A DNA stretch of 64,000 nucleotides from Cenarchaeum sp. (GCA_965212015.1 OZ243037.1:1184001-1248000); one strand, 5' to 3'. Positions 59,451 to 62,927 are shown, counted from the stretch's first letter. Translations and numbers: made by a program. Notes: generated by a model from the sequence alone, not told the origin.

Positions 59451-60581
59451 CTAGTCCACAAACGGTTTTGGGTGGTTGAGGATTATCTTGGATACCTCGG
59501 GCCTCATGATGAACTCGTTGGGCGGGATCTTTTGCTGTATCTGTTCGCGAAGCTTGGTGCCGCTGATCTGCTCCCGGTCTTCTGCGGCGTGCGGGCACGC
59601 CTTGGGATTCGTATAGGTCAGGCATTTTTTGCAATAGAAAAACGCCGGGAAAAAGACCGGCTTTATCTCGAGATCCTCGTAATCCTCAAAGATCCTGTGC
59701 GCCGCAAACGGATCATAGTATTTTCCCACCCCGGCGTGATCACGGCCTATTATTATGTGCGTGCAGCCATAGTTCTGCCTCATGATGGCGTGGTGAATCG
59801 CCTCCCTGGGGCCGGCATACCTCATCTCCGTGTGCAGCGTGGCCAGCGTGCACCTGTTCTGCGGGTAATAGTGGCGTATCATGGCCTCATAGCACTGTAC
59901 GATTACCTCGTCGACGAAATCGCCGGGTTTTTTCTTGCCCACAAGCGGGTTTACAAACACCCCGTCCCTGGTGGTGATGCTGGTCTTTTGAAGCATCTCG
60001 TGTGCGACGTGGGGCGGATTCCTGGTCTGAAACGCCACTATGGTCTTCCAGTTCGCCTGCGAGAACGATTCGCGCGTCTGGGTGGGAGTCATGCGGTATT
60101 TGCGCGTGGGGGTCTCTTGCGGCCTCTGGATATAGTCTATCTTTCCGCCCACCAGATAGTCCCCCATGGACTGCGTCCTGGCGACGCCCGGATGGCCCGA
60201 ATCAGTCGTCCCATAGACCCCTTTTGCCATTTTTTCCTTCTCAAACTTGTATACGTCGTCTGCGTGGATTATTGCAATGCCGGTGCCCTGCGGATTCTGC
60301 AGCAGGACGTCAGAGTCCTTCATCCTGCCGGCGGTCTTTTCGTCCACGTCGAGCACCACCGGAATGGTCCACGCAGTCTGGTCTGCAAGCCTTCCGTGGT
60401 CCAGTACGCCCTCAAAGTCCGCCCGGCCCAAAAACCCCTCCAGCGGGCTGAATATTCCGTCTGCAATATTCTCCACGTCGTTTGCAAGGCCCTCGGAGAT
60501 CCTTACCGATTCCATCCCGGACGGATCGGTGCGGGTAAAGCGGTTGATCAGCGATCCCCCGTGCGGCCTAATTCCGGTCAT
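59451..60581 (-). CDS. sat: Sulfate adenylyltransferase (ATP sulfurylase)
   Basis: [46 protein letters not shown] motifs; start MTGIRPHGG. Confidence 0.97.
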
Positions 60582-61303
60582 GCCAACTCCTTGTAATCCA
60601 CGTGCATGCCGCATTCCTTGTGTCCGTCTTGCTCCCACCACCACCGTCCGGCCCTCTTGTCCTCGCCGGGTTTGACGGCCCTGGTGCAGGGGGCGCATCC
60701 GATGCTCGGGTATCCCCTGTCTAGAAGCTTGTTGTAAGGTATGTCGTTTTGTTTAATGTAATTCCACACGTCGTCCCACGTCCAGTCAACGATCGGGTTG
60801 ATCTTGAGAATCCCGCCGTGCTGTGAATCAAGCTCAAAGATCCGCGCGCCGGTCCTGTTTTCTGTCTGATCCTGGCGCAGTCCCGTAATCCACCCGTCAA
60901 GGGTTCCGAGTATTTTGTCCGTGGGATTGATCTTTCGTATCTGGCAGCAGAGCTTTCTGTTCTCGGGGCTGTCATAGAACAGATTGACTCCGCGTGTCCG
61001 TACCATCTCCTCGACTTCGTCTGCGTCAGGAAACAGGATTTCAAGTTTGATGCCGTATTTTTTTGCCGTTTCGTCCATTATGTCATAGGTCTCCTGCGGC
61101 AGCCTTCCCGTGTCAAGCGTAAAAAACCTGAATTCCGGGTTTATCTTTACCATCATGTGGGTTATGGCGGCGTCCTCTGCGCCAAAACTGGACGCCTTGG
61201 CCACGCCGGGATGCAGATTCTCAGAGGCCCATTTAATGGCCTCCTGCGCGGTGCCGAACTGTGAGTTTAGCTCGTCGACTTGGGACTGGGAGAACTTTGT
61301 CAA
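60578..61303 (-). CDS. cysH: APS/PAPS reductase (Fe-S, APS-reductase type)
   Basis: [46 protein letters not shown] motifs; TTG start with TATAAAA box about 22 nt upstream. Confidence 0.94.
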
Positions 61304-61548
61304 CGAGCCTGCTGGCCCGATTTGTTTTATATTTGATTGCAAGCGTGGTTCCACGCAAAGCATTCTTGCCGACATCCGTTCCTGCCGTCCTGCCTCCCTT
61401 ATGTTTGTGGCTGGGCGCACAAGATCTGTATTGGCCGCACACGCTGCCGCAGGCCGGACTGTTTCAGGCGGAAATATCCGCGCTGCGGGATTTTTTCTCC
61501 AGTCCGCGCATATGGAAAGGCACGTGCATGCCATTTAGATAAAAAATG

Positions 61549-61644
61549 GCGTGATCCCTAGTTTGCAGGAACTTTGGGAGACTACCTCCCGGTTCAGGCC
61601 CACTCGTGGCGCCTGATTTCACATTTTGTCCTGCGGGATCACGC
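61549..61644 (-). ncRNA. Candidate structured non-coding RNA (three-way junction)
   Basis: Nested stems GCGTGATCCC/GGGATCACGC, GCAGGA/TCCTGC, GGGAG/CTCCC, TCAGGC/GCCTGA; minus-strand TATA-like box upstream and T6 tract downstream; strand inferred from these signals. Confidence 0.6.
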
Positions 61645-61686
61645 AGCTCTAGTCGATAGTAATTGGATCTATCGGCATCACACAGT

Positions 61687-61728
61687 ATAGTAATTATTAC
61701 TATTTAACATTTAGTATGAAAATTCATA
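61687..61728. promoter_or_regulatory. Palindromic operator-like sites overlapping a TATA-like box
   Basis: ATAGTAAT-T-ATTACTAT (61687-61703), TATGAA-AA-TTCATA (61715-61728), minus-strand TTAAATA at 61701-61707. Confidence 0.55.
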
Positions 61729-61914
61729 TAAAATCAACCGTCATATTGGAATTTTTTGAGGCTAAATGATGCAAATGTCCGGATCCGGACCGGTGCAGAT
61801 GGCATGGCAGGAGCAGCCGGCGGCGGAATCCCGCACGCTGCGGGTCTGCACCTGCAAAAAAACGGCGCGGAGGTGGAAATAGAATTAATAGTACAGGTGC
61901 AAGACTCGAGAGCC

Positions 61915-62124
61915 ATGGAGCAGCTCAAAAAGAGAAAGATTCGCCTGATTATCCTGCTTGCAGTCATTTGGTTTGTCATTACACTTCCGCTTCCGTGGAT
62001 TGTCGGAAATCCCGACGTAAAAGAGTCCTCGTTTTACACAATTCTGGGAATCATTGGAATCATGTCGATTCCGTTTGTCATGCTGGGAATTGTCTGGACC
62101 CTAAAGCCAGAGCTTACAACATGA
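61915..62124 (+). CDS. Small two-TM membrane protein
   Basis: MEQLKKRKIRLIILLAVIWF...; stop overlaps the cysQ start (ATGA); TTAATA box upstream. Confidence 0.8.
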   Translation: MEQLKKRKIRLIILLAVIWFVITLPLPWIVGNPDVKESSFYTILGIIGIMSIPFVMLGIVWTLKPELTT

Positions 62125-62927
62125 AAGTTCCCATACAGGACAAGATGCCCGAGCTTGACTTGGCCATAGAGGCCGCACTCACGGCGGGCCGGGAGATAAT
62201 GAGAATCTACCGGACTGATTTTTCGTCGGGAACCAAGGCCGACGATTCTCCCATTACCGAGGCGGACCTGGCAAGCAACCGGATAATAAGGGACATACTT
62301 GCAAGGTCGGGCCACTATATTCTGTCAGAGGAGGATGCGGACAGCGCAGACAGGCTAAAGGAGACCGTTCTGTGGATTGTAGATCCGCTGGACGGGACGT
62401 CGGACTTTATCGACAGGACGGGAGAGTTTACCGTAATGGTTGCGCTGGTACGCGACGGCAGGCCGGTAATAGGGGTGATTAACTGGCCGGACGGGGGCGA
62501 GCTGTTCGTGGCACAGAGGGGCGGCGGCGCATTCAGGCTCTCCGAGGGAGAATGGAGGGGGATTGCAGTCAGCCCCGTCACGGAGCTGGGATCGTGCAGG
62601 ATTGTCGGAAGCAGGCACCACCTGTCCCGTCTGGAGCGCGATCTAATCGGCAAGATGGGCATAGGCGAGTTTGTCAGCGTGGGCAGCTCCCTGAAGGCCT
62701 GCAACGTGGGCTCTGGAAAGGCAGACGCGTACTTTACCCTGACTAACAAGATGAACGAGTGGGACTCTGCGGCATCAAGCTGCATAGTGACTGAGGCAGG
62801 CGGAAGGATTACCGACATGTGCGGTAATGAGATCACGTACAACGGCGGCGACGTCAGGCACCAAAACGGGATATTAATCAGCAACGGCGGCCTGCACGAA
62901 AAGATTCTGAGGGCCGTACTAGATTAG
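62121..62927 (+). CDS. cysQ: 3'(2'),5'-bisphosphate nucleotidase (CysQ, inositol monophosphatase family)
   Basis: KADDSPITEAD, LSEE, WIVDPLDGTSDF, GSRHH, GSSLK, EWDSAA motifs. Confidence 0.94.
   Translation: MKVPIQDKMPELDLAIEAALTAGREIMRIYRTDFSSGTKADDSPITEADLASNRIIRDILARSGHYILSEEDADSADRLKETVLWIVDPLDGTSDFIDRTGEFTVMVALVRDGRPVIGVINWPDGGELFVAQRGGGAFRLSEGEWRGIAVSPVTELGSCRIVGSRHHLSRLERDLIGKMGIGEFVSVGSSLKACNVGSGKADAYFTLTNKMNEWDSAASSCIVTEAGGRITDMCGNEITYNGGDVRHQNGILISNGGLHEKILRAVLD

Follow-up and report, generated by a model that had tools for sequence, protein, structure and literature searches.

The minus strand of positions 61707-61541 of the window (the 64,000-nucleotide stretch of Cenarchaeum sp. 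DNA that was analysed) carries an independent small gene of ~135 nt with two domains: a 5′ hairpin (P0) that contains a short reading frame, and a three-way junction followed by GCC and a U-rich tail. The gene belongs to a small RNA family that is restricted to the taxonomic family of the window's organism and had no prior catalogue entry. Taken as a whole, it is best explained, at about even confidence, as a stand-alone leaderless mini-ORF RNA in which the passage of a ribosome would compete with the folding of the closing stem of the junction (P1).

In the window, the element is flanked by a minus-strand ORF that encodes a PAPS-reductase domain (cysH, 60578-61534) and by a plus-strand gene of the inositol-monophosphatase family (cysQ-like, 61968-62927). 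It consists of a TATA box, a mini-ORF located in the 5′ hairpin, the three-way-junction domain, GCC and a T-run. The sequence features listed in an initial annotation of this DNA were all found in place, and the parts of the gene are as follows:

61712-61708, minus strand: BRE-like A-rich AAATG, upstream of the TATA box (consensus tAAAT in 142 copies).
61707-61701, minus strand: promoter TATA box TTAAATA, at -29 to -23 from the A of the ATG, with zero length variation in 142 aligned copies.
61687-61703: perfect 8-1-8 palindrome that includes most of the window's CTATA box (window copy only).
61686-61690, minus strand: promoter-proximal CTATA box, downstream of the TATA box and ahead of the start (consensus cTATAat at about -13 to -7 in 142 copies).
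61678-61649, minus strand: mini-ORF of 9 codons, MPIDPITID, with the ATG at 61678-61676, ~22 nt after the TATA box, and the stop codon TAG at 61651-61649.
61674-61654, minus strand: P0, the 5′ hairpin CGATAG / CTATCG, enclosing most of the mini-ORF (window fold and all 12 first homologues).
61549-61644, minus strand: three-way-junction domain of 96 nt, comprising P1, the bulge, P2, P3 and P4 (folds and alignments).
61644-61635 with 61558-61549, minus strand: P1, the 10-bp closing stem, GCGTGATCCC with GGGATCACGC (fold).
61634-61629 with 61570-61565, minus strand: P2, GCAGGA with TCCTGC (fold).
61616-61594, minus strand: P3, variable hairpin (fold).
61590-61576, minus strand: P4, conserved hairpin GGGAG-GTAGT-CTCCC (fold).
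61564-61559, minus strand: 6-nt bulge on the 3′ side (fold).
61548-61541, minus strand: 3′ end, in which the final C of the invariant CGCC (61548) is unpaired and is followed by one A and T6 (61546-61541), the presumed oligo-U terminator (consensus of 142 copies).

The family is defined at its 5′ side by a TATA box at -29 to -23, a start codon at +1, 8-9 codons in P0 and a stop codon 3-5 nt before P1, and at its 3′ side by P1-bulge-P2, a variable P3, a P4 of the form GRGAG-GNRNU-CUCYC, and CGCC with a U-rich tail. Every one of these features is present in the window copy, whose 141.4 bits with the covariance model R1 are the top score among all matches. Counted from the second base upstream of the ATG through CGCC, the matches span 109-136 nt. 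Some details that had been read from the window prove to be local. The tRNA-like NCCA end is seen in the window copy, but only GCC is kept in 142 copies, the next base having no majority. Similarly, the 8-1-8 operator palindrome is perfect in the window but specific to it, as the relatives keep only the outer ATAG...CTAT boxes. The alternative hairpin GCCATTT/AAATGGC has no counterpart among the relatives in the 142-copy consensus.

A 186-nt stretch containing the element folds with a minimum free energy of -59.4 kcal/mol, vs. -40.9 ± 3.9 for shuffled sequences (z = -4.76), and 0 of 200 shuffles were as good. The plus strand of the same stretch folds equally well (z = -4.88), so the strand needed to be settled by other evidence. 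A blastn search detects the element in 11 genomes belonging to the window's family, with E values between 1e-24 and 1e-5. Folded singly, the 12 first homologues share a common architecture that includes P0, while the sequence of P3 is different in nearly every one. RNAalifold applied to a plain MAFFT alignment of the 12 copies recovers P0, P1, P2 and P4; 11 of the 30 pairs carry compensatory changes. The MAFFT result and the single-sequence folds are free of the bias towards the modelled structure and strand that affects the alignments fitted with the covariance model (A3 and A4). Subject to that bias, 88.2% of the cells of A4 (99 distinct rows) pair, vs. 39-57% when the partners are slid by 1-3 columns; both sides change in 33 of 37 pairs, and 0 of 500 shuffles reach any of five measures. 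The paired cells of A4 amount to 97% in P1, 95% in P2 and 97% in P4, vs. ~40% with slid partners. In P0, 71% of the cells of the 99-row alignment are paired and both partners change in 5 of 6 pairs. Together with the family-wide matches described below, these alignments bear out a conserved, covarying fold in the relatives.

In the 99-row consensus, sequence conservation is confined to helices P1, P2 and P4, and J2/3, J3/4, J4/2 and the bulge appear as "n". This combination of conserved helix sequences with a variable junction and bulge is the opposite of what a metabolite aptamer displays. A corrected mutual-information scan recovered the known helices and no convincing extra long-range or pseudoknot pairs. 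Constraint can also be followed at the strain level. Contigs from two runs of a close relative (X3 and X4; DNA-type contigs, the kind of run not being on record) are ~98% identical to the window and cover the whole of a 701-nt stretch. They differ from the window by 14 substitutions and one 9-nt deletion, all of which fall in the other 561 nt, with 0 differences within 61541-61680 (140 nt) and the nearest at position 61683. At the flanking rate ~3.5 differences would be expected in the 140 nt, and the finding of none lends weak extra support to constraint.

The RNA belongs to no known class. A search of the whole window with Rfam 15 (4227 models, gathering thresholds) returned three tRNAs only, all outside the element. 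At E up to 10, the region 61400-62000 gave only chance matches to rdlD (15.1 bits) and isrK (12.5 bits), both again outside the element, and at E up to 1 there was no match at the RNA in 15 diverse homologue loci. With no family at the locus or in the 15 homologues, the novelty proposed in the initial annotation stands. ARAGORN located 3 tRNAs elsewhere in the window and no tRNA or tmRNA at 61530-61728. A tRNA or tmRNA was rejected on these negative results, on the lack of a majority base after GCC in the 142 copies and on the AUG that begins the ORF. A divergent 5S, SRP or RNase P RNA was likewise rejected, since canonical copies of all three occur elsewhere in the window's genome (G000; 79.6, 106.5 and 185.6 bits, respectively). 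Guide sRNAs are recognised by C/D boxes with a K-turn, or by a pseudouridylation pocket with a 3′ ACA. Here, P1 and P2 are fully Watson-Crick, the bulge is on one strand only, and P1 is followed by GCC and not ACA; no snoRNA-type Rfam match was obtained at the locus or at the 15 homologue loci, and a C/D-box or H/ACA guide was rejected. A full-text literature search retrieved no description of this RNA: the accessible part of one source describes no thaumarchaeal ncRNA (PMC5069720), that of a second mentions only the SRP and RNase P RNAs of another ammonia oxidiser (PMC13475601), and a third, as far as its accessible part goes, has its coverage limited to Rfam-10 families (PMC3840354).

The distribution of the RNA is sharply bounded. 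Full-length matches to R1 occur in 138 of the 151 genomes searched in the window's family (Nitrosopumilaceae according to the initial annotation), with 1-4 per genome and in 26 of 27 genera; without three unpublished genomes (G093, G107 and G108), the count is 135 of 148. The only genus without a match (0 of 4 genomes) has genomes of 0.8-0.9 Mb. Across the order, R1 matched 23 of 23 genomes in the family and 1 of 127 outside it. This single outside match is weak (74 nt, E = 4.7e-4) and was taken as chance. A second model (R2), built from 101 copies, found the RNA in 80 of 80 genomes of the family (79 of 79 without G093) and in 0 of 70 genomes from eleven other families of the class. Altogether, R1 and R2 detected no convincing copy among 197 genomes of other families. 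The window's genome has a single copy, and a repeat or mobile element was rejected on this ground. A viral origin was also rejected, as the lone pattern match in viral contigs is a chance P4-like hairpin (model score 9 bits, E 0.1).

Within the modelled helices, G-U cells outnumber A-C cells (388 vs. 138), which favours the modelled (minus) strand. The archaeal TATA box is located ~26 nt before the transcription start, with the BRE on its upstream side. When the 142 copies are aligned on the ATG, conservation starts exactly at the ATG and the two preceding bases vary. The fixed position of the TATA box at -29 to -23, with an A-rich box upstream, indicates minus-strand transcription from a start that coincides with the A of the ATG or adjoins it. 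The RNA is inferred from these elements to be leaderless and to end at the U-tract just after P1. The tail reads CACGCC followed by a T-rich stretch in the 142-copy consensus, and a run of at least 4 T is present in 103 of the 142 copies. The promoter-proximal box calls for a separate caution, because CTATAAT at -13 to -7 could serve as TATA box to a start lying within P0, and the AUG would then fall outside the RNA. A scan of the window's genome for TTAAATAGT-N7-ACTATA, the motif of the promoter, allowing at most 2 mismatches, gave this gene and 2 unrelated sites, the reversed control giving 7; no regulon is defined by the motif there. A divergent leaderless ORF upstream was rejected as well, given that an ATG on the other strand near -38 exists in only ~40 of 141 copies and that the ORFs are not conserved.

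Downstream ORFs, defined by calls made for this analysis (at least 80 aa), were available at 147 loci. The downstream ORF converges on the RNA in 118 of them, usually abutting the tail or overlapping it by a few bases, and lies on the same strand in the other 29. At these 29 loci, the same-strand gene encodes a CorA-type transporter in 8 (at 62-98 nt), an Fe/Mn superoxide dismutase in 5 (at 12-30 nt), a zinc-ribbon protein in 4 and cysH in 1, the rest being singletons; there is no common theme. In the commonest layout, a cysQ-like gene and/or a short-chain dehydrogenase gene diverges upstream and F0, a 145-residue membrane-anchored protein without Pfam family, converges downstream (90 loci). 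A functional pairing with F0 was rejected, because in the window's genome F0 is ~96 kb away and the RNA is kept. Neighbouring genes overall have no common functional theme.

In the 12 loci first compared, cysH adjoins the RNA only in the window's genome; in the relatives, the coordinates place it on the same contig ~12-113 kb away. In the window, 7 nt separate the end of the T-run from the cysH-containing ORF (60578-61534). However, 32 of 33 cysH matches in other genomes align from residue 58-94 (mostly 69-80) of this 318-residue ORF, and the cysH frames in those genomes are mostly of 240-280 residues. The exception is a genome of the same genus (G001), in which cysH aligns from residue 7 within a 313-residue frame. 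Because the homologues align mostly from residue 69-80, the real start of cysH in the window is probably Met54, at ~61375 and not 61534, which is ~160 nt further on. The RNA's position upstream of cysH is due to a rearrangement specific to the window's genome and is not a sign of a sulfur-specific leader. The sulfur-responsive leader or attenuator for cysH-sat considered in the initial annotation finds no support, given the unique cysH adjacency, the convergent downstream gene in 118 of 147 loci and the lack of junction conservation. The reading favoured in that annotation, a stand-alone sRNA, gains from the RNA's own promoter at a fixed distance, the absence of an Rfam family and the family-wide covariation.

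The mini-ORF had been regarded as incidental, but it is among the best-conserved features of the family. Of 148 distinct copies, 142 have an ATG at one and the same position of the model. In these 142, the ORF has 9 codons in 131 copies, 8 in 10 copies and 13 in one low-scoring copy (18.6 bits). The six copies without an ATG in place comprise two with GTG there (8 codons), one with TTG at the next codon (8 codons), one with an offset ATG (9 codons) and two that are low-scoring and degenerate. All three stop codons occur among the 142 (TAA 109, TAG 18, TGA 15). In three lineages of three genera the loop is shortened by 3 nt and the original stop stays in frame. In one lineage the P0 hairpin is 7 nt shorter and the spacer 3 nt longer, and a new TAA or TAG lies in frame. 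The old TGA of this short-hairpin class is still present out of frame, a hint of an RNA-level role for the triplet.

To follow the history of the stop codon, a tree of the 131 nine-codon copies was computed from the nucleotides on the 3′ side of the stop. On it, one stop codon is exchanged for another 21 times, and the first T never changes; the three spacer positions after the stop change 24, 47, and 40 times. The second and third stop positions vary between A and G only, the same as expected if a purine were required, and since TGG would be expected under independence in ~1.7 of 131 copies, its absence is not significant. Within codons 2-9 of 108 distinct sequences, stop triplets occur in frame in 6 sequences (the 8-codon forms), vs. 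78 and 26 sequences in the other two frames.

The peptide encoded by the mini-ORF takes 74 distinct sequences in the 142 copies, the commonest being MPKDIIPID. Residue 2 is mostly P or S, and paralogue classes carry distinct peptides. The ORF nucleotides that belong to the stem are invariant, including third codon positions, and the loop codons display neither three-base periodicity nor an excess of third-position changes. Frozen stem codons together with loop codons of this kind give no sign of selection on the peptide. Across the 74 distinct peptides, no repeated codons for one amino acid were found, and most loci lack an operon downstream. As for the attributes of an attenuator, the ORF is conserved and ends shortly before P1, a U-run comes after P1, and translation itself is predicted. 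In 133 of 142 copies, 3-5 nt separate the stop codon from the beginning of P1. The position of P0, which begins 3-4 nt after the AUG, would hinder initiation. Start-codon substitutes, interchangeable stops, frame-keeping indels and the TATA-locked AUG nevertheless make it moderately likely that the mini-ORF is a translated leaderless mini-cistron, a reading derived from sequence comparison.

These features can be assembled into a mechanism. Transcription would begin at or next to the A of the ATG, yielding a leaderless RNA that would finish at the U-tract. The mini-ORF would be translated and, as its sequence varies freely, the peptide would not be the product. Rather, it is the passage of the ribosome that would matter. 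The footprint of a ribosome extends roughly twelve nucleotides beyond the A site on the 3′ side, so that with the stop codon 3-5 nt before P1, a terminating ribosome would occupy P1's 5′ strand and melt most of it. The folded junction domain and translation would therefore be mutually exclusive. In this way, translational activity could set the shape of the RNA, its half-life or the formation of its 3′ end. The folded domain most probably acts in trans through a protein or RNA partner: the sequences of P1, P2 and P4 are kept and the junction is not, which suggests recognition by such a partner.

The main alternative is a purely non-coding stand-alone sRNA, either an RNP component or a trans regulator, in which the AUG, the hairpin length and the U-R-R triplet would be a recognition site and the ORF would never be translated. 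All the structural and distribution evidence fits this alternative equally well. Nucleotide conservation in the helices and in P0 extends to third codon positions, there are 74 peptides in 142 copies, the short-hairpin class retains its old TGA out of frame, and P0 sequesters the region right after the AUG. However, the exchange of ATG for GTG or TTG, the use of all three stop codons with no sense codon at the stop position, the 3-nt indels in three lineages and the new in-frame stop that follows a frame-changing deletion form the pattern of a reading frame, and the distance from TATA box to ATG is fixed exactly as in a leaderless start. A purely non-coding RNA is possible but doubtful. It is improbable that the gene is instead a tiny mRNA whose product is the 8-9-residue peptide, with the three-way-junction domain acting as a 3′ stabiliser and terminator. 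The conserved position and length of the ORF agree with such an mRNA, as do the distinct peptides of the paralogue classes and the predominance of P or S at residue 2, which permits removal of the initiator Met. Yet nearly every position of the peptide varies, even between orthologues, without third-position excess, and conservation is much stronger in the 3′ domain, with its sequence-specific helices that a stabiliser would not need, than in the coding part.

The two remaining alternatives place the function of the element in a neighbouring gene or on the other strand. A cis-acting leader (riboswitch or leader-peptide attenuator) would control read-through into the gene downstream, here cysH-sat. 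The 7 nt between the T-run and the cysH-containing ORF, the succession of short ORF, stem and U-run, which resembles a bacterial attenuator, and the same-strand gene in 29 of 147 loci, including the CorA-type (8) and superoxide dismutase (5) genes, are compatible with this role. It is very improbable all the same, given the convergent gene in 118 of 147 loci, same-strand genes without a theme, a cysH adjacency unique to the window's genome with the real cysH start probably ~160 nt further on, junction nucleotides that are not conserved and the lack of a codon run for one amino acid. Hardly any probability attaches to the plus strand as the functional one, whether as a 3′ element of the left-hand gene or as a leader of the cysQ-like gene. 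The plus strand does fold as well (z = -4.88) and a cysQ-like gene is the commonest neighbour on that side, but the ratio of G-U to A-C cells (388 vs. 138) supports the modelled strand, the TATA and A-rich boxes point the other way and sit between the element and cysQ, and the left-hand gene differs between loci and in the window is on the other strand.

The stand-alone, ribosome-responsive RNA preferred here shares features with several known systems. In bacterial leader-peptide attenuators (trp, his, ilv, pyrBI), a tiny ORF likewise lies just before a GC-rich stem and a U-run, and a ribosome on the ORF would block formation of the stem. In contrast to these attenuators, 118 of 147 loci have no regulated gene downstream, there is no codon run for one amino acid, the stem closes a conserved 96-nt junction domain rather than a simple hairpin, and the RNA is archaeal and apparently leaderless. 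Archaeal termination is not known to need a hairpin. Dual-function sRNAs (SgrS/SgrT, RNAIII/delta-haemolysin, SR1/SR1P) are also stand-alone structured sRNAs with a short frame. Their peptides have 26-43 residues and are conserved, whereas the present frame has 8-9 codons, encodes a peptide that is not conserved, and is archaeal. The RNA further resembles the sRNAs that form GC-rich islands in AT-rich archaea (HgcC and relatives), being stand-alone, GC-rich and highly folded amid A/T-rich spacer. Unlike them, it has a mini-ORF; it also has no Rfam match and occurs in a different phylum.

With tmRNA, it has in common a structured RNA with a short internal frame and, in the window copy, an NCCA end. 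The tag ORF of tmRNA has no start codon, whereas the present frame starts with AUG and is placed at the 5′ end; moreover, the CCA is not conserved and there is no mimic of an acceptor or T-arm. Three-way-junction riboswitch aptamers (purine, TPP) are comparable in that a long stem closes the junction and, in the window, metabolic genes are near. In contrast to those aptamers, the junction residues vary and the helices are conserved, no consistent gene lies downstream, and no Rfam match was found.

The carriers of this RNA are ammonia-oxidising archaea, which dominate nitrification in the ocean and in many soils. Almost nothing is known about RNA-based control in these organisms. Roughly nine in ten of the genomes searched in the family carry the RNA, often in 2-4 copies, with covariation support on par with that of many curated Rfam families. 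Such family-wide presence and covariation, with no Rfam model and no paper found, reveal a clear annotation gap. With the models R1 and R2, genomes could be annotated for the RNA and its abundance measured in marine metatranscriptomes. The fusion of a leaderless start codon and a tiny frame to a structured domain also provides a testable case for translation-gated folding or termination in archaea. Gating of this kind is textbook knowledge in bacteria and unproven in archaea. A bolder version, unlikely as a whole, is that this is the first archaeal ribosome-gated RNA, a leaderless stand-alone transcript in which translation of nine codons would melt the closing stem of the junction domain, the copies before the CorA, superoxide dismutase and cysH-sat genes having been co-opted as true attenuators. 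If this were true, translation would set whether the RNA folds, ends at the U-tract, binds its partner or is degraded, and the RNA would be a sensor of ribosome availability in the ocean's most abundant ammonia oxidisers.

The reading frame downstream of the RNA gene is probably annotated with too early a start. The following window features lie on the flanks of the RNA gene:

60578-61534, minus strand: ORF containing cysH
61434-61496, plus strand: terminator-like GC hairpin, then T6 (CCGCGCTGCGGGATTTTTT)
approximately 61716-61728: additional conserved A/T box
61756-62124, plus strand: ORF of 122 codons, without Pfam match
61968-62927, plus strand: cysQ-like ORF

In 32 of 33 hits from other genomes, the alignment to the cysH-containing ORF begins only at residue 58-94, mostly at 69-80, and the homologues in these genomes have frames of their own of about 240-280 residues. 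The sole exception is a genome of the same genus (G001), in which a frame of 313 residues aligns from residue 7. These alignments suggest that the ORF is called too long and that translation more likely begins at Met54, whose ATG lies near 61375; this would leave about 165 nt between the T-run of the RNA and cysH. The plus-strand hairpin, which lies within the region of this ORF, is a chance match to isrK (12.5 bits), and no plus-strand gene ends at it.

On the opposite flank, the additional A/T box (TATAAaatTT.at) occupies positions -50 to -38 relative to the ATG, upstream of the RNA's own TATA box, and is present in most of the 142 distinct copies aligned on their ATG. It may represent the TATA box of the divergent neighbour or the site of a regulator; of 141 copies, only some 40 have an ATG on the opposite strand at this box. 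Between the RNA promoter and the cysQ-like gene, a GC-rich spacer lacks 9 nt in a close relative (runs X3 and X4, at window position 61807). The 122-codon ORF covers, in a different frame, the initial 157 nt of the cysQ-like ORF. Since four relatives share the cysQ-like N-terminus from its first residue onwards, the 122-codon ORF is probably spurious.

Matches to the RNA are not uniform within the family. The covariance model gives no match in the four genomes of genus g4 (G007, G049, G072, G090), which are very small (0.8-0.9 Mb) and 79-95% complete. In genus g12 it matches only two of five genomes, with low scores, and the single copy examined (L067, in G015) has neither ATG nor stop. In both genera the gene may have been lost or have decayed.

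Elsewhere the gene is duplicated. One genus carries it as a same-strand tandem pair, with copies about 180 nt apart:

L133, same strand: copies at 1501-1626 and 1805-1929
L158, same strand: copies at 1501-1626 and 1810-1934
L169, same strand: copies at 1475-1599 and 1778-1894

Two paralogue classes are located close upstream of same-strand genes:

MRKD..NK class, followed after 62-98 nt by a CorA-type transporter gene: eight loci (L061, L063, L130, L131, L136, L151, L160, L167)
MTFVVRxMD class, followed after 12-30 nt by an Fe/Mn superoxide dismutase gene: five loci (L145, L146, L159, L161, L162)

Ahead of these transporter and dismutase genes, the RNA copies might act as leaders.
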